A stretch of 59,007 nucleotides of DNA, counting the filler, from Rhizaria sp. SCN 62-66 (taxonomy: Eukaryota): NCBI GenBank assembly GCA_001724265.1. It is 5 parts of 5 records of this genome, joined end to end, with 100 filler letters (N's around TTAATTAATTAA, not from the genome) between each part and the next. Parts side by side here need not be neighbours in the genome. Positions count along the whole stretch, not along the records: positions 24,180 to 34,498 come from MEDY01000557.1; 4 more parts are not named here. The stretch is one strand, 5' to 3'. The notes under the pieces are model-generated. The model did not search any database and was not told where the DNA came from. It saw nothing but the letters and a program-made list of their open reading frames with translations. Below, piece by piece: positions 1-56,601 of this stretch. Position numbers and translations under genes: made by a program. Within the stretch, counting starts at the first letter, position 1; each line of letters begins with the position of its first letter.

Positions 1-2
1 TC

Positions 3-21483: not shown

Positions 21484-24079
21484 ATGTTCAGCACGCGCGA
21501 GGACGGCTCAATGATGCCGTCTCGCTCCGGCGCCGTTTTGTTCTTCCTGTGCACGTTCTTGCTCGTCACCGTCGCCACAATTTTCATCCACTCGGGCCGC
21601 GTCGACGACGCCGTGTTCCGCGTTCTCCTCACCGCAGACAATATCGACGCTAATCTTCGCGAGTCACTGACCGCGGCGGAGTTTGCCCGGTTAAAACGTG
21701 CTGAGGCTGCGAGTTCCTCTTTCGCTGAGGTCAGCGACGACGACGTCGACGCGGAGTCCTCTGGCTCGGGCACCGAGGCCAACGCTGACGCTAGCTCCAC
21801 GGGCGCCGGGGCCGGCAATGGCACTGGCAAGGTCAAAGGTAAAGGCAAGGGCAAGGGCAAGGGCAAGGGCAAGGACAAGGACAAGGACAAGGACAAGGAC
21901 AAGGACAAGGACAAGGGCAAGGGCAATGGCAAGGGTAAGGGCAAGGGTAAAGGGAATGGTAAGAGCAAGGATGACAAAACCTCCGGCTCTGGCTCTAACC
22001 CTTCCTCTGGCTCTAGCTCCAGCTCTGGCTCCAACCCTTCCTCTGGCTCTAGCACCAGCTCTAGCTCTAGCCCTGGTTCTGGCTCTAGTAGTGGTGGCGT
22101 TCAGCAGCAGCCGCCGTCTCGGCCCGCGCCGATCGTCCTGCGTGGCCGCCACGTCTTCCTCACTTCAAACGCCACCAACGTCGAGTACACCTCTTTACCG
22201 CACGCGCTATGCCCGTCCTGCTTTACCCCCAGCGCCTTCGCGGCCGCCAACGAGCCCCAGTGCACGCTGCCGCCGCCTCGCTTTCCTACTGAGCTGGGCG
22301 TCGGCGCCGGTGTCCACCCTCTGCTATGGCACTCGCACACCGGCGTGTACCGCGCCCCCACGGCCTGGGCCGGTTCCGCCTTGGTCCGTCATGAGAGCGC
22401 GCGCGTCGGCCGCGCCATCTGTCGCCACTGCCTTGGCTCCGTGCCCTGCCGTGGCCCCGCGGGCGCGCCCCCGCACCCGTCGCTTGACGCTGGCACCGCG
22501 CGCTTTGAGGCCGATTTCATTCCGCGTCTCGACGACGCAGGTCGGCAGGTCAACGGCTGGGCGTCGGTGTCCGGCACGCACTACCTCGTCAACCGCTGTG
22601 TCGAGCCCATCGACGCCGTGTACACGTGGATCAACGGCTCCGACCCCGGGGTTATCGCCGCGCGTACCGATGCCCGCGAGTCCCTGGCGGCTTATGTTTC
22701 GCCCGTGCCCGGCTTTCCGCCTGCGGCGCCCGACCAGAACTCGCTGGGCAACAACCGTTTCCGCGATTCCGGCGAGCTGCGGTACTCGATGCGCTCTCTG
22801 CTCAAGAACGCGCCGTGGATTCGCCGTATTTACCTCGTCACTTCTGGTGAGGCCCCGGTCTGGCTCAATACCAGCCACCCAAGCGTCGCCGTCGTGCCCC
22901 ATAAGGACGTCTTCGCAGAGCCCAATCGGAACGCGCCGTCGTTCTCGTCGAACGCGATCGAGTCAGCGCTGCACCGCATTCCAGGCCTCTCTGACACGTT
23001 TGTGTACGTCAACGATGACGTGTTCTTTGCTAAGCAGATTAGCCAGGGCGCGTTTTGGTCGCCTGCGACGGGGCTTTTTCTCGAGCGCGCTGCTTGGAAG
23101 CTGCAGAGCTGCAATTCGGGTTGTGACACACAGTTTCTCGGCGACGGCGTCTGCCATCCGGCCTGCATGACCGAGGCGTGCCAGTGGGATCTGGGCGACT
23201 GCGAGCGCAACTACCTCCGCGCGCCCGCTCCTTGGGAAGTTTACGACATGCTTTTGGCCGGACTTCACCTATTTAACGCTGACGACCGCCGAAGCGCCAG
23301 CTCGCCGCATGCCGATCGCCCCCGTGACTGAGGCCGAGGTTCTGTGGTCAACGATCCCCGCTTCAACCACCGACGCCGCGCCTCAACAGACCGCGCCCGG
23401 TGTCAACATCGGCCGATCCTCCTCTTCCGCCAATGGGGCCACGGCTGCGGTGCCCGCCGGCTCCGTCCACGGAAGTTACGCGCCGTTTTACTCCGCGGCC
23501 GCGTTTAAAGCCGGCTGTTACGACCCCCTCGTTGCCGCGGCCAAGGCGGCCGAGGCCGAGATCGCCAAGACGAAGGCGCTTGTCGCCGCGCTAGAGCAGG
23601 ACGTTCCACCTACTGCCGACTCCATCAACACCGACACGAATCCTACTAACGCTGATTCTGCCGACGGCACGACCGGGACCGCGACTGCTACTGACGTCCC
23701 TGTCGGCGACTCTACAGCTACTCTCGATGGTGCTGCTGCCGCTAGTGCAATTGGCATTGATATCGGTGGTGGTGACGCAGCGCCGACGACGAGCGACACT
23801 GCCAGCCTAACCAGTGAACAGATTGCTGAGTTGTACCCTCCTCTGTCCCCGGACGCGCCTCCCGAGCGCACGCGCTCGCGCGCACACCCGCTGCTGCGCC
23901 GCCTCGCCCACTCCGGCACATTCGCCTTCGCCCGCGGGAATCTTTGGAGCAACAACACTTACGAAGCAGGCATCCCCGCTCCCGAGACTGATTTGCTATC
24001 AGAGCCCGATTACTGCGCTCCGGGCTGCCCCGCCGCGTGGACCGGCGACGGCGTCTGTGACAGCGCCTGCGACGTCGAG
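21484..24079 (+). CDS. Stealth-family GlcNAc-1-phosphotransferase (GNPTAB-like) with LNR/Notch repeats; apparent +1 frameshift near 23251-23255; 3'-truncated by gap
   Basis: N-terminal TM anchor. Stealth CR1 IDAVYTWINGSDP. CR2 RFRDSGELRYSMRS...APWIRRIYLVT...FSSNAIE...IPGLS...YVNDDVFF. LNR repeats CNSGC...GDGVCHPAC...WDLGDC and, in the next frame, CAPGC...WTGDGVCDSAC. Confidence 0.88.
21826..22092 (+). repeat. Coding tandem repeats: (GGCAAG/GACAAG)n encoding GK/DK, followed by TCTGGC/TCTAGC Ser-Gly repeats
   Basis: Directly visible hexamer arrays in the stem region of the Stealth protein. Confidence 0.9.
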
Positions 24080-24179
24080 NNNNNNNNNNNNNNNNNNNNN
24101 NNNNNNNNNNNNNNNNNNNNNNNTTAATTAATTAANNNNNNNNNNNNNNNNNNNNNNNNNNNNNNNNNNNNNNNNNNNN
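24080..24179. other. Artificial contig spacer (TTAATTAATTAA at 24124-24135)
   Basis: Same linker as the other gaps. Confidence 0.95.
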
Positions 24180-24181
24180 TC

Positions 24182-24277
24182 AAGCGCCAGCCCGCCCAGC
24201 CCCAGGTCGCCCGCTTCATCGCCCCCTCCGTGCCCGTCACCACCCTCACCCCCAAGCCCTTCGTCTGGCTCGCCTAA
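24182..24277 (+). CDS. RPL21: 60S ribosomal protein L21 (eL21), C-terminal fragment only
   Basis: Manual translation KRQPAQPQVARFIAPSVPVTTLTPKPFVWLA-TAA matches the eL21 C-terminal pattern LKRQPAxPR...P..L.P.P(Y/F). Strong C-ending codon bias. Absent from the ORF track. Confidence 0.8.
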   Translation, partial: KRQPAQPQVARFIAPSVPVTTLTPKPFVWLA

Positions 24278-24638
24278 GTGATCGATAGTCGCACCATGAC
24301 GTGAACAACGCCAACAATGACGACAGCAGCGAGATATTCTCTCTGTATTGGCGTCGCTGTCGATGCGTTCGTTGTCTGCTCGCAGTACTGAAAGCAGACT
24401 GGCTAGAGCAGCTCCATTCCTCCCTGTCTCTTTGCTTCACTTTTCACCCCAAATGAGCAAATACTAATACATACCCCTTCGAAACAACCCTAATTTCACA
24501 CGATGTTGGCTATATTCCATTGAAAATCTATCTCTTTGTATTCTATAGCCGCTTTTAATCACGCATATCCCCGGCCATCTTGGATCTTGAGCTCAAATTG
24601 TACATACAGTACATGACATGTAACTTCTTTCTCACCAT

Positions 24639-25679
24639 TCACCACGAGGCCTCCTGCCCGTTGACGGTGAACATCCCCTGCAGCCGCTCGGCGACCTCAG
24701 CGAGCGCCTTGCGCGGGACGACCATGACGAGGTGCGACGAGGGCAGCTTGCCGACGCCGGGCCAAGGCACCGCGCGCATGGCGGGGAAGCGACGCGAATA
24801 CACGGCCTTCTGCGCCAGATACTCCTCCTCGAACTTAACAAACCACAGCCGCGCCGTGTCCACGGGCCCCTCGACCGCGGCTGCGGCGGCGCGCGCAGCC
24901 TTCTTCTCCGCCTTCTTGCTCTTTCCGGCGCCGCCGTTGGCGCTGGCGGACGAGGAGGCGAGGCTGCCGTTGTCAGCGACTTCGCAGCAGCGCGCGAGGA
25001 TGACAACCTGGTCGACGTCCCAGTCCGTGCCCGCCTTGGCGCCGCCGGTCTTGGCCTCGCGGCGCGCGTGGTCGAGGTCCTTAGCGAGCTCGGCGTGCAG
25101 CACGGGCACGACCTCGAGCGGCAGATTCAGCATGCGGTCCTGCAGCAGCAGCGCCGTGCGCGGGGAATCCCACACGGCCGTCATGCGCGCGCGCGCGGCG
25201 TCAGAGCCCATGTTCTCGAGGATGAACTCCTTCAGCTGCGCCAGGCAGCGCGCCTTGCGGTGCGCGCCCAGCTGCAGCAGCGTGATGAAGCCAAGGGGGC
25301 CCGACTCGACATCGTCCTCGGCCTTGACCGTGGTGCCCACCGCGGCCTGCCCCGCGATCAGGTCGGCCAGCCCGTTGACGTCGAGCGCGTCGCCCGCGCC
25401 GCCGTCCACGCCGTCGCCGTCAATGTAGCTGCGCAGGAACGCCTTGACGGCGTGGTAGTCGCCCTCGCAGGGGTCGAAGAAGCCGAAGCTGGCCTCGACG
25501 GCGGCGTCGTCGTCCTCCTTGTCCTCGTCGTCCACGGCCTCGGCCGGCACAGGCTTGCCCTGCTTCTTCGCCAGCGCGCGCGCGGCCTGCTTGCGCTTGC
25601 GCTCGGCGGCGCGGTGGCGCGGGGCCGCCTCGGCCGAGAGGTCGATAAGCTCCTCCAGGTCGAGGTTCTCGTCGTCAAT

Positions 25680-25712
<33 letters not shown>

Positions 25713-26207
25713 AGCGCCAATCATGTCGCCGTCCTCGTCCTCATCGGCATCCTCGTCGTCGCCCTCGAGGTCGCCCTCCATGTCGCCCTCGCCCATAGAG
25801 GCAAGGAAGGCGCGGAGCTCGGCCTCGCTCATGCCGTCGACGTCAATGCCCTCATCATCGTCGTCCTCCTCTTCCTCCTCGTCGTCATCAGAGGAGACAG
25901 GGGCGGGAGCCTTCTTGCCGCTGCTGGGCTTGCCAGCAGCGGGCTTCGCAGCGGCCGCCGCGGGCTTGGAGCCAGCGGGCTTGTTGGGCGCGGCAGCGGC
26001 GGGCTTGGCGGCGGGCTTAGCGGCGTGGGGCTTGGGGAGCGAGACGGGGGCGCTCGGCTTGGCGGGCACGGCGCTGCTGGTGCCCTTCTTGGAGACCGGG
26101 GCGACGCGGTTGGGGGCGTCACTGGAGGCAGCAGGACGCTTGCGGGAGGCTGCGTCAGCAGCAGAGGAGCCCGACGAGTGCTTCTTGCTATGAGGAACCT
26201 TGCTCAT
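24639..26207 (-). CDS. BCP1: BCP1/BCCIP family protein (60S biogenesis) with a basic/acidic N-terminal extension
   Basis: Motifs VEASFGFFDP..DYHAVKAFL, LADLIAGQ..VGTTVK, GFITLL and LLLQDRMLNLPLEVVPVL are typical of BCCIP/Bcp1. Ends at TGA. Confidence 0.88.
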
Positions 26208-27097
26208 ATTGTCTAAGCCAAGAGAGGGAAAGAAAGGACAGTCACGGGGGCTAAGATGAGCGATGGAGAACGTGGCGTAAAATATTTTGAAAGTAGACCA
26301 TTATTAAGTTTTCGTTTTGATATAGACATTTGCATCACACGATGAAAGGTGCCGATTTGAAGCTGTTGGCGCGACGCTACAGCGACTGGTCCGCGATCCG
26401 TCGGGCGGAGGCTAGTCTGTGGTCAGCTTGTGGTGGCAATTGATTTGGAAGGATATCTGTGTGTCTCTAATGACCACAGCGGAATAGACCAGCTCGTTGT
26501 TATTTTATGACAGTACTTGTGTGGAAAACACATGCGTCTATTCTAAAAATCGTGTATTTGTTGAGTTGCTGCCGGTTTCGCAGTGCTGATTGCAAATGAC
26601 AAGCTTGTTCAGCCCGCCAGGAACGTCTTATTTCAAGGCTAGCACGATGAAATCAAGGGGTATTGCTGGCAAACCTAAGATATAATACATTAATTAAAAG
26701 CGAAAATGAGATGACCTTGAAATGAAACCAATAAGCTACAGTTATATTGATATGCGCCTTGCTTTTCGTAATTCTGAACTTCGTGCTGTTCGAGTGCACT
26801 GTAACGGCTTGGAGCTGAGGTCACTTTTACTTTGAGTGTTTCGACATGGATATTCGTTAGATGGAAATGTTTCCGGACTTGAGTAAACTAAAAGCAAACT
26901 GTCTATATGAATTTAATTGTATATGTCTTACATAGGCTGTATTCCCCCTGTAGACCCCAGGTTTTGTTCGCAGCGTTTCGCTCACCCTCCGCTCCCGGTT
27001 TCCTCTGCACACTCGCTTCTCCAGCCCTAGCCTTGACCCACTAATTAAGAGAGACTTCATTTAAGGTACATCCTAGACATTTCCGCGTTTTAGCGCC

Positions 27098-30000
27098 ATG
27101 CCTGAGCCCGGGTCCACGACTAAGGCGAAGCCGGCCGCGTCGGCCGCCGCCGACAGCAACAAGAAGGTCGTGCTTCCCCCCATCACGCCAGCGCGCAGCA
27201 AGCCGGCCTCCGCGAAGGCTTCCTCTGCCTCCACCGCGTCCACTGCCTCCGCTACGCTTGCGTCCGCGACCAAGCCCATCGCTGCTGCATCGGGTAGCAC
27301 GCATAACAGCGCGTCTCCGCGCCGTGCGTCCGGGGTCAGTCCCACTAAGAAGCCTGCTGCCGCCGCCGCTGCTGCGAACGGTAGCAGCAGCAAGAGAAAC
27401 AGCAACAAAAGCCACAGCAGCGGCACTGCAAGCGCTAGAGGCGGCAACAGCCGCAGCAACAGCAGCAACGCAACTCGCGGCGACAGAGACAACGAGGGCG
27501 ACGACGACGACCACCACGGCGACAGCCACGACGGCAACCACACTGAGTCTGCGATTGCTGCTGCTGCTGCTCCCGCCGCTCCCGTGCCTGCGCCGCCGGC
27601 CCCTGTTGGCAGCGTTGGCGCCATGTTCCAGAAAAAGCAGCAGCAGCAGCAGCAGCAGCAACAGCAGGCTAGTTCTGCTGGCGTGGCTGGCTCTGCTGGA
27701 AGTGCGACAGCGGCGACGGCTCACAGCCGCAGCGCCTCTGCCGCCCAGGGCCACGGCCACGCGGCCGCGTTTGCCTCGGTGCCGGTGCCGGGCCCGTCCC
27801 GCACCAGCACCGCGACCGCGACGACGAGCTCCGCGAGTGCGGTTGTGGCCGCAAGCAGTGCGAGCGCGAATGCCCCCGCCAGCGCGGACGCCCACGGTCA
27901 CCGTGTGGAGACTGCGGCGGCGAGAAACGAGGCTGCGAGCCATAGCGCCAGCAATAGTCACGGCGACGCGAGCCCTGTTGCTGCGAATAACGGTGTTACG
28001 GGTCAGACTGGCGCTGTCAACGTGGCAGCGACAGACTATGCCAGTGCGAGAGCCACCTCGGCGGCCTCTGCCTCCACGTCCGGCTGTGCTTCTCATGGTG
28101 ACCGTGAGCATGACCGCGAGCACGAGCGCGCACACACCGCGTCGCCCACCGGCAGCACTGCGTCCAACGCCACCTCCAACAACAACAACGGCTCTAGAGC
28201 AGTGAATCCGAGCAAGCGAGTCAGCGGCACCGGCGCCCTCGCCATCGACCTCCACGCCCCACCTGCTGTGACCGCAGGCAGTAACAACGGTAGAGTGCAG
28301 CAGCAGCCCGGCAGCGCCGGCTCTGGCTCCGGGTCGAGCCAGCCGCTCCTTCTGAGTCCCTCCTCCGCCTCTGCCCACGGTCACTCCAGCGCTGGCGCTG
28401 CAGGCGGCTCTCCTCTGTCGGTGCGCGTGGGCTCGGCCGGGCCCAACTACCCCAGCAACTCGTCATCGAAGCCGCCGCACTTGGCGCAGGCCGCGACGCT
28501 GGGCCCCCAGACCGCTGGCAGCGGCGGCGCGCAGGGCCCTGCGTCGCCCACTTCAGGGGGCGGCCGTCGCTCGTCGCTGGCCCACATTCTCTCCCCGTCC
28601 TCGTCCTCCGCCGCCGCCGCCGCCGCTGCGGCCGGCCACGCAGGCCACGCGACAGGCTTTGCGCCGCACCACTCGCGGCAGGGCTCGGTGGCGCTGTTGT
28701 CGGGGACGCCGACCGCGAACGGGGTCGCCGGGGGGGATCTGGCGACCAAGAACCACAGCGAGGCGGCCTACTATGAGCGCCTTACTGAGGAGCGCGAGCG
28801 CCGCGTCGCGCTGCAGAGCGAGGTGCTGACGCTGCGCGGGGCCGTCGCGGACGCGAACCGCGCGCGCGAGGAGGCCCTCAAGGCAGCGGCGGCCGCGGAG
28901 GAGCGCGCTGCTGCGCATGAGGCACAGCTCGAGGAGGAGCGCAGAGAGGTACACCACTCACGGATATCACTGTCACTGAAGTTTAACAAATAACGTACAT
29001 TGTATTCACTTAATTTCAAATAGTTTTACGAATCTTACTTTACCTTCATTCTTTTTTGGTTTTTGTTTTGATATCAACTTGAAGCTCGCACGCTCGCTGG
29101 AGGCCGAGCGCGCCTCGATGGCGCAGGAGCTCGCCGCCAAGGCCCGCGAGGATGAGGAGCGCCGTCTCCGCATTGCCGATGCGTCCCTGGCGGACCAGCG
29201 CCGCGAGTGGGAGTCGTCGGCCGTTGCGCGGGTCACTGCGCGGTTCAAGGAGGACGCCGAGGCGCAGAAGCGGCAGCACACGGAGGCCGTCAATACCCTG
29301 CGCGAGCGGCAGGTCGAGCTGGAGCAGCTGTCAACGGCGCAGAAGCTCGAGATCCGTCGCCTCACAGCCGAGCTGGACGCCATGATTGGCTCCCGCGACC
29401 GCTACGCGCGCAAGGCACAGATTTTCTTCACTGACTTCCTCAACCGGACGCGCTGGCGCAAACTTCTGCTCTTTATGTCGGCGAAAGTCTTCCTAGTCCG
29501 CGCCCGCGCTGCGGCCCGCTTCCGCAAGCTGCACAGGCAAGTATACGAGGTGCTGGCCGCCGCGCTGGACGGCGAGACGCTGTCGCAGTCTCCCCCGCAG
29601 AAGGTCATCCCCATCAGTACAAGCAGCAACACCGCGACGGCCGCGAGCTCTACAACTGGTTCTAGCGCGACTGGTGCAACTGGTGCGAGTGCTGCCCCGG
29701 GGTCTACGTCTCCGGGCAAGAGCAACCGGCGCGCGACGTCCGTGGTGCCGTTCCACGAGGACTTCGGCTACGGGCTGGCCAAGCACGGTGACCCCGCGCT
29801 GCGCGCCGCCGTTGCCGCCGCCGGGGCCAATCGGCCCGGCGCAGGCAACGGCAGCGGCAACGGCGTCAATAACAATAGCGCGTCTGCTGAGGGTGGCAGT
29901 AACAGCGCGAGGAACAACAGGAACAGCTTGAACAGTAGCGTGTCTCCGTCTTCTGGTCCGGTTTTCTCCGGCGCGGGTTCTGGTGTGAGTGTGTCGTCAC

Positions 30001-31274
30001 TGGGGTACTTAGTGCCGCAGTCCGAGTGCGGCGCGTGGCTGGAGCGCGCGCGCGAGATCCTGAGCCAGGAGGAGAGTTTCGCGGCCAACATCCGCGAGTG
30101 CCGCAAACTGGGCATCAGCCTGAGCACGCTGCGCGACGAGCAGCAGGCGATCATGAAGCTGGCCGACGACGACGCGCTGTGGCGCCATGTTGCCGACGCC
30201 GCCGCTGTGCTCGCGTCCGAGATCTCCGCCTGCCGCATCCGCGAGTCGGTCTGGCGCGCCACGGCCGCCACGGAGCTGGCGTCTGCCGCCTCGCAACAGG
30301 AGACGCGCGCGCTGCGCGACCGGCTGGCGGCGGCAGAGGCCGAGCTGGCCAAGGAGCGTTCGCGCCGACGGCAGCAGGAGGCCAGCGCGCCAAGCTACGC
30401 GCAGCCGCTGCACCACGGCAGGCTCGCGCACGCCAGCAGCAACAGCGACCTCACCGCGAAGCAGCCCCAGTACCACCACAACGCGTCCACTTCCAGCGCT
30501 ACGTCCAGCTCCAGCCCTGCTGCTGGCGCTGGCTCTGGCCCTAGCTCTGCGGCAAAGAAGCGCTCTCACCGCCACCACGGGTCCTCGCTGCCCGCACTCG
30601 CGGCGGCGCTCGCGGGCGCGGCGGCGTCGAGCGGCCGTCAGCCGCCGGGGCGCTCTCCGGGCCACTCGCGGTCGCCGTCGTGGGCGCACCAGCAGTCGCT
30701 GCGGCCGCTGTCCGCCGTGCCGGACGCGGAGAACGAGAACAGCGGCGGCGGTGCGGGCCGCGGCAGGGGCGCTGGCGAGGACGAGGACAAGAGACACGGT
30801 GACCGCGAGCGCGAGCGCAGCCGCGAAAGCAGTAGGGAGCGCGAGCGTGAGCGTGAGCGCAGTAGCGACAGGCGCAGACACGGCGACTCGTCAGTTGACG
30901 CATCCAACTCTACCTCTGGCTCTAGCTCAAGCTCTGGCTCAGAATCGAACAATACTGCGAGCGCTAGTGCGAGCGCTACTACGACTGCTGCGGTGCCGAC
31001 GAAACCGACGGCGGAGAAGGTTCTGCCGCCGCAGTACATGGCTCTGTTCCGAGCGCAGCTGCGGCCTGCTGCGCCCGCGTCTGGGGGGACCACAACTGTA
31101 GCCTCCGGTAACGCCAGCAACGCGAGCTTGAACGCGAGCAGCGCGGGCACGACTAACAACAACAACACCAAGGCTGCGAGCAATGACAGTGCGGTAAAGC
31201 CTGCCACTTCGACTGCTAAGGCTGCGCCTGCGCCGACAGTGTCCACTGCTGCTGCTGACGGCAAGAAGAAGTGA
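27098..31274 (+). CDS. Hypothetical low-complexity coiled-coil protein, about 1350 aa; exons 27098-28948 and 29085-31274
   Basis: Two long GC-rich ORFs joined in frame by an AT-rich GTACAC...TGAAG intron (28949-29084), giving a continuous EEERRE|LARSLEAER coiled coil. Ends at TGA. Confidence 0.75.
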
Positions 31275-31756
31275 TTGTTAGCAGTGTTGTCGCTGTGAGT
31301 ACTCTAGTGTTTGCTCGTCTTAACGTTGAAAACATCAGTGTAACCTATATGTATTTTGTTAAAAGTTAAATATTATGTTTGTTTGTTATTGTTCCTCTCG
31401 CCATACGTAATAACCGTTTGCACGACGCATGCCTAAGACATGTGCCAAGCTCGTGACGTTAATATTAGTGTTGCACTTTTGTTCTTTACTCTAGTTTCGC
31501 TTACCTATTATAATAAGAATGATGATGCAGGGCTGTCGTTGAATTGAATCATTTGATGACCAATTTTTTAAAGCCCTAGCGCGTTGTTTTAATCTTTGTT
31601 GCAATGAAATCAACGAACCCATGTGTTATGCATATCTTTGGTTCTTCCGACTGTATCTTACACTTTTCGACTGAAAAGTTTGCCACAAACGAACAAAATA
31701 ATACAAATTATCACGAAACATTCATTCATCTTCTTCTTGAACTCAAAATAGTGCTT

Positions 31757-33838
31757 TCACTTCTTTTCGACTCTTAACTCAGTCACCGGCACGACAGGGA
31801 CTACTGCCGGGCGGGGCATCGGTGATCCTGGTGCGATTGCCGATGGGGGTGATCCCACCGGTACTGCAGCTCTTGCTGCTTCCGCTGCCGCCGCTGCCGC
31901 TGCGTCTGCCCGCGCCGCCGCCCAGTCAGACTCACTTTCCCGCTCCGCTTTCGTCATTGCGATTGTCAATGAGGCGTCTTTCACTGCACGCTCTGCAATG
32001 CCCGACAGCAACAGCGCTGCGGCGCGGTCAGTGTCTTGCAGCGTCCACATACTTAGAGCCCATATTGCGGTTAGCACGAGTACAGTTGCAGTAGCAAGTA
32101 TGGCGTATGGCAGCGATCGGGGCGGCGTTCCAGTAATAGTGTTCGTTCCGTCAGTTCCTATGATTTGCTGTGGATAAAAGCCAAATTTAGCAAGTATGCG
32201 CCGCAAAAGCGACGGAAACTGGTGCTGCGCGGAAAAGCCCCGCTGTTGATAAGGCCACATCCACTCCCAACCCCCTTGACTCGCATTGCCGACCCGCGCA
32301 ATTGTGTTGCCGGCAGTGTTACAAACACCTTGATGCTGTAGATGTAGTAGTTGCTCCTCTTGCTTCCTCTCGGCGACTACAGCGCGTGCCTCTGCCGCGT
32401 CTGCGAATTCTTTTGCCTTTGCCTTGTCAAGTTCTGCATTCTTTGCTGCAGCCTCAGCCGCCGCCGCGCGCGCCTCAGCCTCCTGCGCCGCCTTCTGCGC
32501 CGCCGCCAGCGCTCTCTCTGCCCGCGCTTCAGCCTCACCCGCCCGGTAGGCCTCGCTCCGCAGCGCTGCTTCCCGCGCGGCGCTATTCCGCGCAGCCTCA
32601 GCGCGCGCCGCTGCCGCTGCAGCTTCCGCACCATGCCTTTCTTTGGCGCTGTTGACGGCGCTAGCTGAGCATGTTGTAAGCTTTGATGCTAACTCGTCGC
32701 GCTCGTTCCGCAACGACGTGACTATATCGTTGAGCTTAATACGTTCGTCATCAAACCGCTTCTGCTCAAGTTCAAGCTCTTGTTTTGCCTTCTGTTGTTC
32801 ATGCTTGAGCCTTAGCTCAAGCTCAGCCAAGCCTTGCTGCGCCTGCTTTTCGGCATCAGCAATAGTATCAGCCCTATATTTAGCCACCGCGTCTGCTGCT
32901 GCAGCGGTAGCAGCAATCTCAGCTTCCACCTTGGCTTTAGCGGCTGCGCGTTCAGCCGCTGCGGATGCCTCAGCTGCAAGCTTCAACGCCTTATCCTCGG
33001 CGTCTGCAAGCGCTCGCTTTGCAGAAGTAAGCTTAACCTTAAGCGCAGCGATCTTAGCCTTGGCCTCAGTCTACGCTGCAGCATCAGCCTTTGCCTTGGC
33101 AGTTGCAGCGGCAACAGCCGCAGCTATGGCGGCCTCCGTTGCTGCACTGGTATCTGAGCTGGTTGGTGGAAGGCGAAGCGTGAAATAGTGAATGCTGCCG
33201 TCGCTATCAATTTTGCCTACATTCGTGAAGTGAGCTGCATTGCTCTTGCCCATAATAGGAGTGACGCATTCAGTTGCATTGTTACCCACCAGCTGTTGTT
33301 TTTCTTCTAAGTTGCCGCTTTCCGAAATCGTTGCGGCCGCTTTGGCGTGAGCAAGCGTGATGTTGTAGCCAAGTGACGGCGTTACGATGAGTGAGCCACA
33401 ACGCACCTGCACTCGCACCCACAGTGGAGTCCATGCTTCGCGCTCTGTAGCGGTTGGCGTTGCTGTTACATTTGATGTTGCAGTCGTCGTTGCAGAGCGC
33501 AGCAGAGTGATGTGGCGGGCAAGCCAACGCGGTGTGACTGTGAAAGACCGGTGTGGCAGCCGTGTCGTCACTGTGTCGACGACAGATGTTGCACCTGGGT
33601 GAGGGTAGGACAGCGCAACAGTGCATGGCGTGCTTGTAAGTAATGCGTTTGCAGCATCGGTTTGCTAAGCAGTGCTCGGTGCAGCTGGAGATGGGATAGA
33701 GGGGACAGCGAAAGGCTCTTGGAAAAGTTGAAACGCAATCGCAAAAGGCCGCATTGCTGTGGAGCTTATATCAGCATTGGAGAGGGGTGCCAAACAAGCG
33801 AGTGCTAGCGCAAACGCGAGCAACGCCCCTAGGGCCAT
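31757..33838 (-). CDS. Hypothetical signal-peptide, coiled-coil, single-TM protein; in-frame TAG at 33667-33665 and 33073-33071
   Basis: Three same-frame ORFs separated only by TAG. Signal peptide MALGALLAFALALACLAPLSNA; Ala/Glu/Lys coiled coil continuous across the second TAG; TM segment YAILATATVLVLTAIWALSMW. Ends at TGA. Confidence 0.75.
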
Positions 33839-34498
33839 GGGGCGCGCAAGGGGGAGTCGGGCGCGACTTGAAGCGTTGCAGAGCCAACTTGAAGAAGTAA
33901 GATTGCTTTGTAGGTATAGGTTTTGTGGGGTTGAAAAAGGAAGTCTATTAATAAGATTCGATGTTGAAACGTTAGATGCGTTGAAATAAGTGTGTTTACG
34001 GTGAACGGCGTGCGTATATCGCCGTATAAATTCAGGCGCCAGTTCACGCAAAGCGATTCCACCTCAATCAAATAGAAAGCAAGCTAAAAGTTGTTTGTGG
34101 TCACGCAGCTTGAAAGAAAACAAAAGAACACAATTTTGCAAAGATACAAAAATACAACTAGATAACGACGAGTGACTCTTGCAAGAGATATATATAATTC
34201 ATTGTAGCCATGACACGTTCTGTTGTGTGCAGAGGCTAAATAGGATGATACAAACAAATAACAAAAACTCTAAGACATATTTTTAACGTGAAAGGAAAAA
34301 ATAGAAAACTAACAGAAATCAAACTACGCAGTTCATAACATCTTATGAATTCAGATTGTCGATTATTACGCATCAGCGAGAGTACTTTCAGCTTAAAAGA
34401 TAACCCCTATGTAGCGTCAACTAAAAAACGCGAATTCGCGCTTTTTTTGCGACTTTGGCGCACTTTCGTAGAAGTTATCAAACTACGTGGTTTATTTA

Positions 34499-34598
34499 NN
34501 NNNNNNNNNNNNNNNNNNNNNNNNNNNNNNNNNNNNNNNNNNTTAATTAATTAANNNNNNNNNNNNNNNNNNNNNNNNNNNNNNNNNNNNNNNNNNNN
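34499..34598. other. Artificial contig spacer (TTAATTAATTAA at 34543-34554)
   Basis: Same linker as the other gaps. Confidence 0.95.
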
Positions 34599-37500
34599 TC
34601 TGTGTTCACAGGAAAACGAAGTGTGTATACACAAGAAACGCCACCTTTAAATCGCGACCGGCAAAAGCTGTCGACTGGAATTTTATGCAGAATGTCGGCG
34701 GTAACATGTGTTTGAACTCGATGACAGCAGTGCGTTAGACCTTGTTTACTACCTTTCATAGTTTCTTCTGACGAGCGTTTGTGGTGGCTGGAAGGGGGTC
34801 GAGACTGGCTTTTCGTCCAACAAGTTAAAAGTCGTAAATTAATCGTCAAACGCGCTGTCTTTTCATATGTAATATTTTCTCGGCTATAGTTCCTTATATA
34901 TGAATTTTTTTTTCTTGGGAGACTGATTTACCGCAAGATCTCACCTCACCGTTTCTGACATCTTTGACTCGACAGGCTGTTGCCCAACCTCGACCACTCC
35001 CGTCCCTGTTGATGTTGTTAACACGCCATGAAAACGCGACTTCAACATCTAACGGCTTATTTGCGCAATTAAACCCAACAATGGTGTCCACGTCTGACCG
35101 AGACTGCGCTGTGGCGCGCCTTGATCACCAGTCATCTCTTACCCCTCCCCACTGTTCATGGCCTCGCGTACGCGCCGGGCAACGAAGATCGGCTACGTCA
35201 AGTGCTCCAGCTTGGGCGTCTTTAACGTGACGATTCCTACCGTGGGTCTCATCAAGCAGCTCCCTGCGACACGCACTATGAGAATGTTGTATGTGGTGTC
35301 AGTATTTATTCGTCCGCCAAGCGTGCCAAGGCACGTCGTGGTGGGGCAGCTCTGATCGTTGTTCTATCCGTCCGTGGAGCTCCGGCAGAACGCAAACGAA
35401 GTCGGACTGTTCAACTCGATCGCCAGCGTTATCGACCCATCAGCCAGCCACTATGATCGAGATGCACTCCCGGTTAACTCATGGCTACCGCTTGAGGTAC
35501 GCTCCGTACCCAGAATGATTGACTTAGCAATGTACATTGTACAACTCGAACTGCAACGCCTCTCATTGAGACACGTTCAATTATAAAGCCAATGGCTTAT
35601 TTGCGATGTTCTACACCAAGCTTTGATGTTGTTCTTGGACCTAAGAGCCCTGGACACGAAATCTACGCTCGTTCCATGATTCTCCGCTCGTTATCGTTGG
35701 CAAACACGGGCACAGGTGCAAAGTCATATAAAACAGCGATGTTGACAATGAGGGCAGTGCTATAGTGGTGGACTCAGCTATTAAGAGGCGTTTGATGCGT
35801 TCATTACGCGTGATCTTTTGGAGCACGGCTTTTCACGGCGCTTGGTGACGCAGGCCTCGATGGTTGTGTTTCCGTCGAAAGAACTGTCATCAACTCTAAG
35901 CTTACCCAGTGATGACATGTTTATGCACCACCTTTGACAGTTCAAAATGTGCGGATGCGATTTTACTCGATTGTGAATGACGAGTGATGTCTCGATTTCC
36001 GATCCTAGTAATACCAAGATAATGGTTAATTTTTGTGATTTTTTTAAAAGTCGTCTGATTACTACGTTGATACATTTTATATAAATATCCCATCTTAAAA
36101 TACCCATAGATTTATTTTTGTGCTATCTGACTTTATCCTGTCGAAAGATCTCGAAGATATTTTCTCCCCCTCGACCACTTGAACGCGACGCCTTCGAAGT
36201 CTCGTATGCCTCCAACAGAGCAAATCGCGCTCAAATTAACACGAGAAGTAATCCCCCGCCGCATATTAGGCCCGAGCACATTTTCCGCACGGGCAATGCA
36301 AGATGACCTTGCTTGTGAGGATGAGAAGGATTCAGAAGAACCTATGCAGACCTCTGTAACAGTCATAACTCAAGGGTTACGATCTCAAACACGGCTATAC
36401 TGATGATTCTTCTCTTAAGAACAAGTAGCCTCTTGTTTCTTTGTATATCATGCCTGGATTATATGTTCCCAACGCATCTCATGACTATTTTCTGTGTATT
36501 GTGCGCCAGAAGCTCCCAATGCACCCTGGCGAAGTGACGACATTTGCGCTTGACAACACACGCGTTCATCACGTCGACATCAGTCAGCCTCGAATAAAGA
36601 TATGTTGCGTCAATATTGTGTGCCTTCACCTTATTCACGCTCTCTTACCCCGGTTGAGATTTTGTTTATGAAGGATGATGAGCATAGACAGCAGCACTCG
36701 CTAACAAACCCGCCCACACGCCACCAGACAAGGTCCAAGTCCTTAAACTCCTGAAGACGTGGTTGGGAACATATCAGTAGAGATAATGGTGTCAACACTT
36801 TGTTTATCACACTTGCACATAGGTGCATGCGTTCTGTTCATCAGGCAGAGGGATGAGACGCGCTTCTCTCTGAGGCTGTTTGTGACGTAGTCGATCAAAT
36901 GAATATAGATAATAACGCAAATAGGGGGAATAATAACAATAATTAATGTAGTGTTGTATATAAAAATAGTTTCATTATTAATTACAATCGTTTTATTGAG
37001 ATCGACAAATTTAAATCCGAAAATACAAACTCAACCATTATCTTGGTATTTTCGACCATTATCTGTACCTTCCACTGTATATTTGTTTCGCTTTGATTGA
37101 TAAATGGAGTTATTTTGTCCGTGGGAATAAGTACTATAGTTAATCAGAATATTGGCTCGTAACGTGAATACGAAAATAGAAGCGTCAATGTGTTTACATG
37201 TCGTAAATTAGCCAGAACATGTAAGGCCTATGGCGGGGCGCATGGGAGGCACATTCTGACAAATTCGGTTGCCAAATCATGCTTTTCCAATCACACTTGC
37301 AGACCAAAAAACGTAAAAAATATGAAAGCGTGTTGTGATAAACAAAAAAGCACATGCTTGTCGCGTTGTAGCTGGAAAAACAAATAGTTTTGAAATCGAA
37401 GTGAAACACACATCAGACGTACATCAATCATTAGAATGAACCGGCAGACTAACGAGATGGAATTAATATAGAACATCGACCAGTTAGGAAGGAAAAGCTT

Positions 37501-38301
37501 CAATTGTAGCAGACAGAAGAATTGGATCATATAAAGTTATGGATTTGGATGATAACGCAAATTTGCTCGAGTGGCGCATCCTGTCTCTCGTCACAGTCAC
37601 CAGCGGCAGTAGCGGTACATCAAACCCAGTGCCAGTAGCAAAACGAGGCGCGAAAAAAAGTAGTCAAAACTGACGCTACAAACACCATGTACAGTAAAAA
37701 TGAGTATACACGATGTGCACCGTCACGGGTCGACACTCATCGCTTGATATGGGACAGCTTAAAGAGGGAATACATACAGATGACAAGATAAAGGAACAGG
37801 CAAACACAAGCAAACTTACAAAAAACAAAAAAAAATAAAGGACAAAAATAACATCAGGGACAAAACACGGGAATCCTGCATTGTGCATTATAATAGCTGG
37901 CGCACATGAACAGGGAGAGAGGGAACATATGGTATGGACTGTGAAAAATGAGTCGCCGTAAAATTAATTTTCATCAAATATTGTGAGAAAACGCGCAAGT
38001 GCACACAAAGAGGAAGTCTGCAACCCACAGAGTCGTTTAATCAAAGCCTGTTTGTTTCTTACAGTATTCGAGTCAATAGATTGGTGTAAAACAATATCGG
38101 GGAACACAAAAATTTAGAATTTAGAGTGAAAAGCACGCACCTGCGTAGCTCAGGTAGCATGAGTTATTCAAAATGAGTGAAGTTTGTGCATACACACACG
38201 CACAGTCACAAAAGGATGCTGCAAAGCAATACTGTCATGACCGGTCGGAGTTGCACACTTAATCAGGCGCGATTTGAGTGAGTGAATGAGTGATGCGCCA
38301 C

Positions 38302-41300
38302 TCAGTTGTCGAGCGTCACCACGAGTGTCGGGTCGTCAGTTGTCTCACGCCTGCGCCGCCTCGCCTCAGCGCCCGCAATCGCGTCCGCCGCCGCCGTGTC
38401 CGCGTCGCAGGCACCGAGCTCGCGGCCCTCACCGTCGACGCGGTTTGCCGCCGCCGCCGTGGCAGCCAGCGACGCCGCCACGGCGCTCTGCCGGTCGTGA
38501 ACGCCGTCGTCAGTGCTGGCGGCCTGGTCGCGAACGAGGTCAAACGTGCGGGACCAGCCCGGTGTGGTGCCGGAGGATAGCACCAAAACCTCGTCGTGGT
38601 TGTTGCGGCCGCGCTTGACATGGCCGCCGTCGGCCACTGCAGCCTCGAGTGCGGCCTCAGCCTCCGCGGCCGCGGCGAGGTAACGGCGGCGCGTGGCAGC
38701 GGCGCTGTTGACGTCGTCCTCGCCGGCGAGCTTGCGCTCATTTGCCGCGGCGAGTGCTAAAGACCTCTTGTCGTCGCGCGCGCGCTTCTCGTGCAACTTG
38801 TCCTGGCGCCACTTGCGCATGACTTGCTGGATGTCGTGGCCGAGGATGTAGGCCTCGCGCAGCTGGCGACGGAGCGGCGCAAGTTGCATCTCCTCGCGTT
38901 GCAACACAATAAACGCGATGACAACGACAACGAAAAAGAATATGACAAGAATGCATATGAACACAGTGGCGACGACTTTGGCAGTGTGCGAGACAGTTTC
39001 GACAAAGAGGAAGTTGGCCAGGAAAAAGATCATGAACGACGTGCCCAGCGACAGGAACTCCACTGCGCCTGGAATACGGTTCTCAAACGGCTTAGCAAAT
39101 ATCTGTGCAAGAATACACACAAAGATTAACAGAGATGCCATCATGAGCTGAGTGTGCAGCGCGCCGGGGAAGAAGACGGCAATGGCGACGAGAGCAACCT
39201 TGCGGAACATTTCAACCAGAAACCAGTAATAGCGCGTGGGTTTGTAGCCGCGGTACAGGAAAGCCATCTGCGCCTCAAAGACCTTCTTTTGCGCACGCAG
39301 GATAGCTGAGGTGCCGGTAACGGGCGCCTGGATCAACGCGCGATTGCGGTACAGAATGGCCCACGCAAAGAGCGGAATGCCAAGTACCCAGAAGATGAGC
39401 ATTGGCACGCCGAGGACGAGGATGAACAGCACGTGCTGCGCCGAGTAGCAGGGCTCGCTGAGGTCGCCGAGCATGAAACTAGCGCCGGGGTCCGCAATGC
39501 CGCCAATGCTCTTACAGGATAACACCATGAAGAACTGGCGTGTGATATTGGGGTGGATCATGAACATGACAACTGTGATGGCAGTAATGATGTAGCCCAC
39601 AAACTCGGCGAACACGTTGTTGAGCGCGTGCTCAGCGGCGTAGAGCTTCTTGCGCATTTCCGCGCGCGTAAGACGCGGCTTCACAGCGCGCGCGTGCTGC
39701 TCGCGAGCGGCCTCGTACATCTCCTTGCCCTTCTCTTCGCCGTATGCTGCCAGGTACCACGTGAGCTGCTTGTGAGCCCGCGCGCGCTCGATTGCGCGCT
39801 CGTGGCGGATGGTGTGGTCGCGCAACACTTCAGCTTCATACTCTACCTCAGCGGACTCACAGGAGACAGCATAGGCGTTCTCCATATCAGTCGCGTCCTG
39901 CAACACATTGGCAATCTCGAAGCTCGAAGTGGCCTCGGCGACGCGCTTTTCGGCGTCGGCTCTGATGCGCGCGTCGTCGAAGTCGCCCTTGCGCCTGCGG
40001 TACTGATCAAAAAGCGAGGTCCACCCGGCACGCGCAGATAGCTCCTGCGCCTTGGTACGGGCCGCGGACACGAGCTCGGCTGCGTAAACGCCCTCGGCGG
40101 CGTCGGCGTCATCCAGCCGCTGGCGCATGTCCGCTGCAAAGTCGTCCAGGATGAGGTCGAAGTCTCTGCGGGCTGCGTGCTGCGAGTACTCACGCAGATC
40201 AGCAGTCGTGCCGTCATTGTCCACAAACAACGCGCTCCCGGCGTTGTCATCGCCGTGGCTGCCGCCGGTGGCCAAGTGACGGGCGCGTGTGTTGCGTTTG
40301 GGCGAGGCCGCGTTGCTGCCAGAGTCGCTGTCAGAGTGGGAAAGCACTGCGCCGTCAATCGACGCAATAAGCGCACTGCTCTTGGCAAGAGAGCTGCATC
40401 TGCCGAGCATACGGCGCTTGGAGCTGGTCGGCGAGTGCGCTTTACTTCCGTCGTTATCGTCGTGCGCATCAGTGTCGCCGTCGGCAAACGTAGAGCACGA
40501 CTGAAGATGACGACTGTGGAACTTGATGTTGTCGGTCCCACTGGTGGCGCTAACGTCGTCTCCGCCGCCCGTTGCGATGTCAAGGTTTTCGTCGCTCTCG
40601 TTGAGATCCATTGCGTCGGTGAAATCGTTGTGCTTGAATTCGATGTCATAATTCGTGCTGCCGTCCATCGACGCCGCCGCTAAATACGGCGAAGTCGGCT
40701 GCCCTACGCGCTCGTTGCGCCAGGACACCTCATCGTTTGCGGCAAACGCGTTGCCAAGCTTGAAGGCGTCAGCGGTGTTGCGACTGCCGCGGCCCACGGA
40801 ATTGCGGCTGCCGCTAACACTGACGTGCCGCGCTGCGCCTCGCGTTACCGAACGCTCCTGCTGCTGGAGCCGGAACTGTTGCGGGTGCAACCGCGGGTTG
40901 CTGCCGCCGAGAGTGGGCGATTTGAGCTGCGAGAGCGACTGGCCGCGCAGAAGTGGACCGGCAAGGCTCGCGACGGGGCCGAGCACAGTGGTCTGTGCAC
41001 CGAGGCGCGGACTGTGGGCAAGCGAAGCAACGGCGGTGGATGCGGGTCTGTCGGGGGCATTAGCGGCTGCCCTAGGGGGCAAAGACGTAAATGCGGGCGA
41101 GACGTTGCCGACCACGGAGGGGGAACGGTGGCTGCGACGAGTGTAGGGAGAATTAGCGGTGGCCAACAGCGTCGCTTGCTGCGCGTGGTGCGCTGGAGAG
41201 GTGTCACTGAGAATGGGCACAGCGCCAAAGTCGGAGAACGAGTTAGAGTAGGGGGCAGAAAGGGGACTGCGGGCCAATGACGCCGCAGCAACAAGCGGGC

Positions 41301-44300
41301 TGCTGTTGTTGTTGTTGTTTGCTACACCGGTGTTATGTGCTTGGGCAACCACAAACTCGCCAAGATCCTCATCATCTGCGCCATGGTCTTCGTCAGTCGC
41401 ACTATAGTCATAGTGACTATGACTCTGAATGTGGCTGTCGGGGCGCGAGTGCGCTGGCGGGCGCACCGGCGGCGGCAGCGGCGCCTCGGCCACGTCGCCT
41501 GCCGAGTTAACCCCGATGCGCCGCCGCTGGCGGACAGCAACGCGGCGCTTTTGCCCGGCGCCAGCAGCGCGGCCGCTGCCGCCGTCGGCACTCAAGTTAC
41601 TGGCACCAAGAGCGGGGCTCTGGCGCAGCGACCGCACGGCTGACGGTGCTGAGGCTGCGTCAGCACTGGCGCCATCTGCAGCGCTGCTATTAGCGTATTT
41701 GTCATGACGCTGTGGAGAACAGTCGAAGGTGTTGTAGCTGTCCACAGCAAGGCCCTTGTCCTCATCAATGAGCTCCCATACGAGCTTATTCTCGCGCTCG
41801 ATCTTCTCGCGGCGCTCGCGCACCTGCTCACCGCGGGCGCGCTTTTCGCTCTCTTTGAGTTCAACGATGACCTCGGCCGACAGCGCGCGCTCCTCGGCGG
41901 CCTGCTTGAGCAGCTCCCTGCGGTAGCGGAGACGCGCGGCGTAGTACATCGGCGTAAAGACCGTTGCGGGCAACAGGACCCCAACCAGCGGCAGCACCAT
42001 TATGCAAATGGTGGTTACCCAGAACGGCTGCACTGCGGGGTGTTCGGCCAGGAAGCAGTCAAGAGATAGGAATGCTGTGCCGACACCGCCGGCAGTGTCC
42101 GCAGTGCTGAAAACGTCCGCGAGTAAGCCGGGCCACTGCAGGTCATAGCGCGCGGCAATAGACATCACCTGCAGACCGGACGTGGCGACCTTTAGCAGCA
42201 GCGGTACGGCGGGCGCGGGCAGCTCGTTCATCGACTGCTTGCCGTCGGTGATCTGCTTCCAGACCAGGATGGTACAAATCGCGATTGCGCCAAGGATGGA
42301 AAGAATGAGGAGGAACGTGCGCAGCGCGGGCTCGTTGCAGCGCGCGCACTCAAACGCTGAGCTTTTGCCGTAGCCGGGGAGACAGACCGCACAGAGGTTG
42401 CCGGTGTGGCCTTCGAGACAGGCGTCGCTGCCGCGGCACGCGCTGTTGATGCACAACTCAAACGACGGCGTGGCGAAGCGCTCGTACTCCGTGTCGCGCG
42501 CAAACCCGCCAGCGGTGAGCACAGCAACGCTGTTGTGGGACAGCAGCATGGCGGTGTTGTGATTAATTTGCTCCACAACACGCAGGTAAAGTTCTTCGCT
42601 TGAGCTCTCATGAGAGTAAGCACCGGTGACACTGGGGTATACATCGACGTTAACCACGGCAACTAGAGCCGCATCATCGCGCGTTAAAGTGTCGTTCGTA
42701 AGGCGAAAGACTTCAGTTTGAGCAACAGCATTGCGTTTTTTGGTTTTAGGCGTGTTGCTGCTACTGACAACACTCTCCTCAGCAGCAAACTTGGCAGCCC
42801 TAAGCTCGCCCTCCGTGGTAAAGTTTAGCCCCACAAGCACAATGCGCTCCAGCGGCAGATCAGAGTCGTCGTAGAGCATCTTCGTGACTGCGGCACGTGC
42901 CACTTTGCGCGCCTCCTCGTTTGCAGTGTGCGTGGGCACGTACAACCGCACGCGCACAACGCTGTCGCGCTCGTAGCGGATTACAGCGGGCGCAAATCCA
43001 GGCAGAGACTTAATGTTGTAGATCGTCGTCCCGGGAACAGTACAGTCACCGCCGAGCATGCACTTGACGCACGTGCCGTCAGCGTCCATGTATGCGCCCA
43101 CTGCGCAGCGGCAGAATGTGTAGTCTTCGTTACTCTCCGCGCCGAGCGCGCACGCCTCGCAGACGGAAGATCCCTCTAGCCGCGCGAACGTGCCGGGCGG
43201 GCACTGCATGCAGGCACCGGAGCGCTCGCCAGAGAAGCTGCCGCGCGCGCAGACGCCGCAGGAGTGGGCGCCCAGGTCGGAGTACTGGCCGGCGGGGCAG
43301 ACTGTGCAGCTGATAGCGCCGGTGCTGTTGGAGTAGAGGCCGGGCGAGCACTGACGACAGGCCGTTTGCGACCATATGTCGTTGAAGTAGCCCGCTTCGC
43401 AGGGCAGACACAAGGTGTCAAGGCCATACTGGCCGGGCGGACACTGCACGTATGACAGCAGGATGTTATCGAGCGACATCGTTCCGTAGCGCTGCATCAG
43501 CGTGACTGTGCGCTCGCTTGCGGAGCCGGGGGGCGTGGTGCACGTGACGCGCTCATGCGGGTACGTTGGGTCATGCGTGACGTTGAGACAGTTCTGCCCA
43601 CCAACCATAACTGTCGAGGCCATGACACCAAAGTTGCGTCCAATCAGCTCGATCTTGTTGCCGCCCAGGCGGTTACACTCGTGGATCAGCGAATCCGATA
43701 CGCTTTCGCAGCCGCGGATGCCCGTGATGGAAGGGGGTGCGTACGACACGCGACTGCGCGACTCAAAGCGCTGCGAGCCGGCCTTAACGGTGACGGTCAG
43801 TGCCTCGCCCGTATTGACTGGCAGCGCGCACGTGAAGAAGGTGTTGTTGGCACGCTCCATCTGCAAACACTGACGACCGCTGATAATGAGTGATAATGGC
43901 TCGAGAAAGGCTGTGCCCATAATCGTGAGGCGTACGTCGCCGCCATCGGTAGGGCAGCCGCTGGTGCGGCCGTTAATCACGTCGTCATGCGGGCAGCCAT
44001 ACACAGCTGTGATCTCGGGGACCTGCGGGTACGAGTAGCGGTCTGTGGAAATGACGCAGCGGCCTGCAATGCAAAGACGGAAGCGGAGATCAATCCTGTT
44101 AACACGATCCTGCGTGTGGCACGCAGCCGTAAGCATGTAACCGCTATACATCAACGACATTGCATGGTTGAAGTCGCACACGTACTGGAAGTCGTCTGCC
44201 GAGAGCGCTTCACCGTACCGCATCGTAATCAGCTGCGGCCGCTCTAGGTAAAAGTTGTTGACCGCCATGAGGACGTCCTCACCGAGCGAGGTTTGACTGA

Positions 44301-48670: not shown

Positions 48671-48671
48671 A

Positions 48672-48771
48672 NNNNNNNNNNNNNNNNNNNNNNNNNNNNN
48701 NNNNNNNNNNNNNNNTTAATTAATTAANNNNNNNNNNNNNNNNNNNNNNNNNNNNNNNNNNNNNNNNNNNN
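48672..48771. other. Artificial contig spacer (TTAATTAATTAA at 48716-48727)
   Basis: Same linker as the other gaps. Confidence 0.95.

Positions 48772-56556: not shown

Positions 56557-56601
<45 letters not shown>

Follow-up and report, generated by a model that had tools for sequence, protein, structure and literature searches.

UAG is very likely translated, with a tentative lean towards glutamine, in DNA of an uncultured wastewater eukaryote

Does UAG still end translation in the eukaryote deposited as Rhizaria sp. SCN 62-66 (GCA_001724265.1), and if it does not, which amino acid does it specify? The question is raised by a gene for a coiled-coil membrane protein whose reading frame is crossed by a TAG at a heptad position of the predicted helix (the focal TAG). 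From this context the initial annotation had proposed that UAG means leucine (Leu). We analysed a stretch of 59,007 bases in all (hereafter the window), which consists of five separate contigs glued together (1–12325, 12426–24079, 24180–34498, 34599–48671 and 48772–59007). The gaps between them (12326–12425, 24080–24179, 34499–34598 and 48672–48771) are each composed of 44 N, TTAATTAATTAA and a further 44 N, a six-frame stop linker. Since the contigs are glued, open reading frames (ORFs) at their borders are cut and gene order across the joins is meaningless.

We found that UAG is very likely translated here, while UAA and UGA stay stops. Frame continuity and domain architecture support this well, as do exon-like composition, gene ends made of TAA and TGA only and the recurrence of the same TAGs in independent assemblies. 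As for the amino acid, the observations lean towards glutamine (Gln), each hint being weak, and Leu is not shown by this stretch. The combined reading, that UAG is a sense codon and means Gln, is the one we favour, although we rate it somewhat short of an even chance.

With only TAA and TGA taken as stops, the 14 gene models of the window (about 14,200 codons) contain 10 in-frame TAGs, at 558, 2773, 4429, 7717, 20180, 33073, 33667, 50661, 54193 and 58757; the initial annotation had given the same count. UAG thus accounts for about 0.07% of codons, and several of the longest genes lack it. This rarity, together with five long genes that lack any TAG, would speak for a codon that still means stop. 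The genes and sites concerned are as follows.

31757–33838, minus strand: coiled-coil membrane protein gene (the focal gene), 694 codons, ATG at 33838, TGA at 31757–31759, no Pfam family match
33071–33073, minus strand: the focal in-frame TAG, codon 256, heptad position 'a' according to heptad scoring, inside a modelled helix, unchanged in sequencing runs X4 and X5
33665–33667, minus strand: second in-frame TAG of the focal gene, codon 58, followed by CAA (Gln), unchanged in an X5 contig (33633–33913) and an X4 contig (32576–34402)
558–560, plus strand: TAG in a protein kinase gene (3–980, cut at the contig start), inside an insertion of about 97 residues between DFG and APE
1948–10557, plus strand: Upf1-like superfamily 1 (SF1) helicase gene, about 2,800 codons, TAGs at 2773, 4429 and 7717, one intron (10246–10371), TGA stop at 10555–10557
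7717–7719, plus strand: TAG between helicase motifs I/Ia (upstream) and II and later (downstream); solved Upf1/NAM7 chains align on both sides, with AAA_11 before and AAA_12 after
20178–20180, minus strand: TAG in a multi-pass membrane protein (18483–20537), within its lumenal beta-sandwich domain; the only TAG with alignable homologues
50659–50661, minus strand: TAG in an alanine-rich protein (48774–50913, cut at the contig end), beyond which coding periodicity continues
54193–54195, plus strand: TAG in gene 52825–55176, followed by CAG; coding periodicity continues over 326 downstream codons, near which no separate start codon is present
58757–58759, plus strand: TAG two codons before the TAA of gene 56072–58765, either sense or a real stop

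After nine of the ten TAGs, the frame runs on for 139–2529 further codons without TAA or TGA. The computed chance of these open runs overstates the case, since DNA with a high G+C content (GC) has long open frames in any frame, and it is the other lines of evidence that carry the argument. In the helicase gene, motifs stand on both sides of the TAG at 7717, so that a complete helicase can be made only if this codon is translated. Standard gene callers split genes at TAG: a 40-residue Joint Genome Institute (JGI) ORF, P0007, terminates exactly at the TAG at 7717, and the helicase is present in the public protein collection as separate pieces. Proteins of this organism are thus mis-annotated wherever it occurs.

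The focal protein comprises a signal-peptide-like N-terminus, a beta-rich region, an alanine-rich long helix or coiled coil, a transmembrane segment and a tail. Its signal peptide lies upstream of both TAGs and its membrane anchor downstream. In the frame of the focal TAG, 330 codons are open upstream and 437 downstream, and minus-strand translation of 32980–33085 gives ...AKADAAA-TAG-TEAKAKIAALKVKLTSAKRALADAEDKALKL. The initial annotation had read this segment exactly, with the TAG at 33071–33073 in frame. One TAG between essential helicase motifs and another between a signal peptide and a membrane anchor both argue against a codon that still terminates.

Coding composition also continues across the sites. 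Periodicity of GC at the first, second and third codon positions (GC1, GC2 and GC3) persists past the TAGs at 558, 20180, 50661 and 54193. The organism does have introns containing in-frame TAG, which would favour the view that some of the TAGs are intronic. Two spliceosomal introns were recognised.

10246–10371, plus strand: intron of 126 nucleotides in the helicase gene, GTACGT...TTTTAG, GC 0.32, containing in-frame TGA and TAG
13918–14062, minus strand: intron of 145 nucleotides in a Kelch-repeat gene, GTATGT...CTTAG, GC 0.35; the last exon is 13597–13917 and the stop is TAA

The first of them served as the reference for the appearance of introns in this organism. The apparent ORF ends at TGA 10363–10365 (helicase) and TGA 14054–14056 (Kelch) both fall inside these introns. 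None of the ten TAGs is in intron-like DNA: GC around all ten is 0.50–0.72, against 0.32 and 0.35 in the known introns, and an AT-rich, frame-preserving GTRNGT..YAG candidate was present at none of them.

Gene ends point the same way. Among the 12 ends examined, a small sample, TAA closes six genes, TGA closes the other six and TAG closes none. The TAG at 58757, two codons from a TAA, could itself be a true stop, which would count for UAG as a terminator. The TAGs were found unchanged across three assemblies. In contigs of the two other sequencing runs that cover the focal TAG, X4 (32576–34402) and X5 (32831–33147), there are 0 differences, which argues against an assembly error. Strain differences over 24180–34498 fall on no TAG. 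Runs with a small share over the same contig look like the same strain at low cover.

Other observations bear on whether UAG is still a stop. The contigs of polyadenylated (poly(A)) RNA listed for 24180–34498, among them one from run X7 that covers 33174–33411, bridge neither TAG of the focal gene, so splicing there is conceivable, which would favour a codon that still terminates. Against this, none of the splice joints in the same contig was credible, all lying in low-complexity repeats or being short-sided. Look-ups of protein clusters for variants that read through a TAG found 3 of the 10 fragments, in clusters of 1–2 members and with no read-through form. C occupies position +4 at four of the ten sites, and CAR follows the TAG at two. 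Both C at +4 and a following CAR are readthrough-prone contexts, as would be expected of leaky stops.

If UAG is indeed read as Gln, it would have been removed from the set of stops and translated, with UAA and UGA still terminating genes. A transfer RNA (tRNA) with anticodon CUA would read UAG and not UAA, and the release factor would no longer be efficient on UAG; neither the tRNA gene nor the eRF1 gene is in the window, in which tRNA and Rfam scans gave no match. Gln might be inserted by a CUA tRNA derived from tRNA-Gln(CUG), or by a near-cognate tRNA-Gln. The focal TAG would then place a polar residue at the opening 'a' of a short run of heptads, a location at which coiled coils frequently fray.

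The clearest hint towards Gln comes from neighbouring codons. As the initial annotation had pointed out, four of the ten TAGs touch a Gln codon, in each case an isolated one; among the proteins of the window, the share of residues that do so is 11.8% for Gln and 7.2% for Leu. The probability of exactly 4 of 10 is 0.019 for Gln, 0.0036 for Leu and 0.0007 each for glutamate (Glu) and serine (Ser). The count therefore favours Gln about 5:1 over Leu and 26–29 times over Glu and Ser, while tryptophan (Trp) is 2.4 times and lysine (Lys) 4.4 times less likely than Gln. Additionally, Gln ranked first in a naive Bayes model of the ±1 neighbours, and it was first for hydropathy over ±8 residues, 1.2 nats above Leu. 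An apparent lack of G after TAG (0 of 10, with 40% of codons G-initial) was dropped as a hint, G following only 22–36% of the tallied NNG codons.

Several points weigh against Gln. The sample is small (10 sites), and four of ten beside Gln is high even if UAG is Gln (P = 0.019), so a cause other than residue identity may lie behind the adjacency. When ±2 or ±3 neighbours were used, Leu equalled or surpassed Gln in the naive Bayes model. Hydropathy over ±3 and ±5 residues did not separate the two, and overall gave no real separation of residues. None of the ten TAGs is on a conserved column in Pfam, in the alignments of solved kinases and helicases or among the homologues of the lumenal domain, in agreement with the earlier statement that no TAG sits at an invariant residue. 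In metagenome contigs, TAG replaces the invariant Gln of the GTPase motif WDTAGQE at 110 loci, none of which could be assigned to this organism, fewer than one match per genome being expected. Finally, the focal TAG is at 'a', and the later 'a' residues are I, L, L and A, which favours a hydrophobic residue. By our estimate from coiled-coil knowledge, an 'a' position is about 2–4:1 for Leu over Gln.

This last point is the core of the first rival explanation, that UAG means Leu and is read by a CUA tRNA derived from tRNA-Leu(CAA), as also occurs in exLh, a rhizarian, and in one uncultivated phyllopharyngean ciliate clade. We consider it unlikely, yet it deserves a close look. We checked the heptads with a simple hydrophobicity score of 'a' and 'd' positions in 28-residue windows. 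The register with the focal TAG at 'a' was best in 8 of 8 successive windows, with starts from residue 237 to 286, and clearly best in the six that start at 237–272 (3.1–5.2 versus 1.8–2.4 for the runner-up). In this register 'a' is occupied by TAG, I, L, L, A and 'd' by A, L, A, A, L, so the heptad assignment made earlier holds. A single-sequence AlphaFold model contains one helix at residues 232–365, with the predicted local distance difference test (pLDDT) of its blocks at 64 to 95 from residue 241 on; the N-terminal domain was not confidently modelled (mean pLDDT 55). Thus, the focal TAG would be inside a long predicted helix. Upstream of residue 237, however, a different register wins, which makes the focal TAG the first 'a' of the run, and a single site at the edge of a heptad run carries the argument.

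Leucyl-tRNA synthetase (LeuRS) does not read the anticodon, which makes a change to Leu mechanistically easy. The wider neighbour models noted above, in which Leu is at or above Gln, also count in its favour, and there is nuclear precedent for UAG as Leu in the available text of PMC5304391 and PMC11687900. Against Leu stand the adjacency of four TAGs to Gln codons, about 5 times less likely under Leu than under Gln, and the surroundings of the other TAGs, five or six of the ten being, by our reading, in polar, terminal or proline-, serine-, threonine- or Gln-rich stretches. In a scan of metagenome contigs, the kinase pattern HRDLKPxN...DFG with TAG in place of its conserved Leu (HRD-TAG-KPxN...DFG) was found at 0 loci, which weighs little since by our estimate fewer than one match per genome is expected.

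The further contexts that had been said to read naturally with Leu did not bear this out. The kinase sequence had been likened to an LPxEL helix start, but its TAG is in the activation-segment insertion of about 97 residues, which has no counterpart in any solved kinase aligned. All three helicase TAGs are in lineage-specific stretches, and the one at 7717 is outside every block aligned to solved Upf1-like helicases. The remaining sites are in linkers, tails or proteins without a known family; no Pfam domain covers any of these others, and the regions concerned are not conserved. Of the original proposal, then, the part that stands well supported is that UAG is translated, whereas the case for Leu comes from a single heptad position, the N-terminal end of a short run. 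The points against Leu are each weak as well.

The TAG at 20180 offered the only comparison with homologues. An exhaustive HMMER search with the lumenal domain around it returned four proteins, among them the window's own fragment and two true homologues (38% and 30% identical), which were the two usable matches. At the TAG the homologues have proline (Pro) and glycine (Gly), beside a one-residue indel. A model built from the three-sequence alignment (predicted template modelling score (pTM) 0.57, mean pLDDT 57) puts the codon in a loop between strands 77–82 and 102–107. A loop position opposite Pro and Gly, rather than in the beta-sandwich core, argues against Leu and was counted among the weak hints for Gln. 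Two word-based searches with the membrane protein gave no match and missed its own fragment too, probably because low-complexity and hydrophobic words swamped the candidates. A likeness of the domain to Mog1 in a PDB search was disregarded (matches only at E = 0.4–0.5). The closest homologue, P0012 (38% identical in the lumenal domain), is likewise alanine-rich. It is recorded from Logan and European Nucleotide Archive (ENA) contigs of up to 141,805 bases, which indicates a related eukaryote with far longer assemblies in public data.

The same loop suits small or polar residues and counts in favour of a second rival that we hold to be quite unlikely, namely that UAG means another residue one anticodon base change away: Glu, Lys, Ser, Trp or tyrosine (Tyr). 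The context models leave room for Ser, Pro, Lys or Trp, and such codes exist (UAG as Ser in Scotinosphaera and as Glu in an oligohymenophorean ciliate, according to the available text of PMC11687900 and PMC10553269). On the adjacency count, however, Glu and Ser are 26–29 times below Gln; the neighbour models give their lowest scores to aspartate, asparagine, Tyr and Lys; and Gln and Leu have more known precedents than these residues. The last rival, that UAG is still a stop and the in-frame TAGs are leaky stops, split genes, young pseudogenes or unrecognised introns, is improbable: nine sites in six genes would all need to be leaky or broken, no TAG ends any of the 12 genes, and the TAGs are kept across three assemblies.

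Translation of UAG as Gln, with UAA and UGA as stops, can be set beside several known nuclear codes, as far as the available text of the sources goes. In the rhizarian exLh (Sainouroidea), UAG means Leu and translation ends at UAA and UGA (Panek et al. 2017, PMC5304391). It resembles the window in that UAG alone is reassigned, UAA and UGA are the sole terminators and the organism is an uncultured protist known from sequence data. Unlike here, UAG is common there (384 in 71 genes versus 10 in 14 genes), and its stops number 56 UAA to 15 UGA, compared with 6 TAA and 6 TGA in the window. Leu was proven for exLh on hyperconserved columns, whereas the TAGs of the window are on none. In the fornicate Iotanema spirale (PMC5304391, PMC9161772), UAG alone was reassigned, to Gln, the residue favoured here, with UAA and UGA as stops, and UAG is relatively scarce (204 in 126 genes). 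The Gln share at its own CAA and CAG codons is about 40%, and its eRF1 is reported to have a changed GTS motif. The two differ in that UAA makes up 104 of 119 stops in Iotanema, while TGA is as frequent as TAA in the window. Moreover, Iotanema is a gut anaerobe, whereas the window is GC-rich DNA from aerated sludge and bioreactors, and nothing ties it to fornicates.

Both outcomes are found among phyllopharyngean ciliates, for which McGowan et al. (2024, PMC11687900) describe UAG as Leu in three TARA metagenome-assembled genomes and as Gln in Hartmannula and Trochilia. There, too, the change is restricted to UAG and was mined from metagenome assemblies, and CUA suppressor tRNAs were found. The ciliate loci that we compared are telomere-capped gene-sized contigs with in-frame TAA, unlike the window, which has multi-gene contigs of 10–14 kb and TAA as a stop. 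Scotinosphaera, with UAG as Ser, is another nuclear reassignment restricted to UAG (PMC11687900). In yeast, Gln codons that flank a stop promote insertion of Gln there (PMC13192750). This recalls the four of ten TAGs that adjoin a Gln codon, but the yeast case is low-level readthrough in a standard code, whereas in the window TAG is absent from gene ends and present inside essential domains, which suggests full reassignment.

The window fits the kind of reassignment that affects UAG only and matches none of these cases in detail. A literature search, supplements aside, found no UAG-recoded eukaryote from sludge or bioreactors. An independent and young reassignment of UAG alone, in a free-living, GC-rich, intron-poor lineage without a described code change and widespread in engineered wastewater, is possible, if doubtful. 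Were it true, the window would offer a snapshot of codon capture, with UAG gone from gene ends, still rare inside genes and clustered beside Gln codons, and near-cognate decoding by tRNA-Gln might have started the process. Nuclear codes in which UAG and UAA differ in meaning are described from a handful of lineages in the available parts of PMC5304391 and PMC11687900, and each new one tests the idea of mechanistic coupling between the two codons. With few UAGs, and with an organism abundant enough for assembly from several wastewater data sets and found in poly(A) RNA libraries, an early stage of reassignment could be studied from existing metagenomes, metatranscriptomes and metaproteomes.

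Of the two motif scans of metagenome contigs, the one with the GTPase motif yielded genes of other organisms. As we estimate fewer than one match per genome for either scan and neither reached this organism, both are uninformative here; as a control, the HRDLKPxN...DFG pattern with a normal Leu codon recovered the window's own kinase. All 110 loci with TAG at the Gln of WDTAGQE are Rab-like by their flanks, and many have in-frame TAA. Among the loci richest in GC3, two (L057 and L075) terminate in C4A4/G4T4 telomere repeats, which identify them as ciliates. Another GC-rich contig, L023 (1–1073), was the best codon-usage match to the window (0.20 per codon, compared with -0.12 to 0.36 for window genes). 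It was not assigned to this organism; its intergenic spacer of 95 nucleotides is unlike the window. It carries a Rab-like gene whose invariant switch-II Gln is a TAG and, 95 bases downstream, a ubiquitin-like gene with one in-frame TAG and another TAG soon after the C-terminal GG. The in-frame one is at a position that we take to be Gly in canonical ubiquitin. L023 appears to belong to another UAG-recoded organism and not to be a telomere-capped ciliate contig.

The source of the window is an uncultured, GC-rich, intron-poor eukaryote: about 15 genes have at least two and probably three introns between them. Across the window GC is 0.47–0.68, exons being GC-rich and spacers AT-rich, on multi-gene contigs of 10–14 kb. 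The gene content is eukaryotic: apart from the kinase, the helicase of about 2,800 codons and the Kelch-repeat protein, there are a Stealth/LNR protein, BCCIP, a giant TIG and cysteine-rich membrane protein and a Sushi-repeat protein. One further gene supplied the likely third intron, with a probable 3′ splice site at about 12588 on the minus strand, before its exon.

12426–12587, minus strand: N-terminal half of ribosomal protein S15/uS19, GC3 0.84 over the whole ORF 12426–12644; the contig end cuts the gene and the first exon is missing

The same DNA is present in bioreactor, wastewater, activated-sludge and fuel-cell metagenomes from 9 studies, one poly(A) RNA library included. Protein fragments of the window are on record from Logan and ENA assemblies, plus one short JGI piece.

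The nearest Atlas cluster to BCCIP is labelled Euglenozoa (score 0.93), and a homologue search with the protein gave one relative at 49% identity and one weak match. The RPS15 fragment had family-level matches only. Kinetoplastids are almost without cis-spliced introns, so the number of introns seen here speaks against a kinetoplastid affinity. The kinase found no relatives in a collection of genome contigs, only 2 unrelated bacterial kinases, and searches of a viral contig collection with BCCIP, the giant TIG protein and the Kelch protein found none either. A PDB search with two proteins that lack Pfam domains gave no match. Dispersed repeats were not found in the window, only low-complexity repeats of the GCC type.

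Other features of the window are of minor importance. The region 34599–38300, about 3.7 kb with GC near 0.47, has no long ORF, Rfam match or tRNA and is an unusually long spacer for such gene-dense DNA. The ORFs at 38302–45243 (the TIG and cysteine-rich membrane protein) and 44873–48601 (the Sushi-repeat protein), both on the minus strand, overlap by about 370 bases in different frames and may together form a single giant gene, interrupted by an intron or a frame error. At 25278–25320, a low-depth contig of run X4 has 7 differences in 43 bases, six of which are at multiples of three and look synonymous. This suggests that a second related haplotype or strain was present in that sample.

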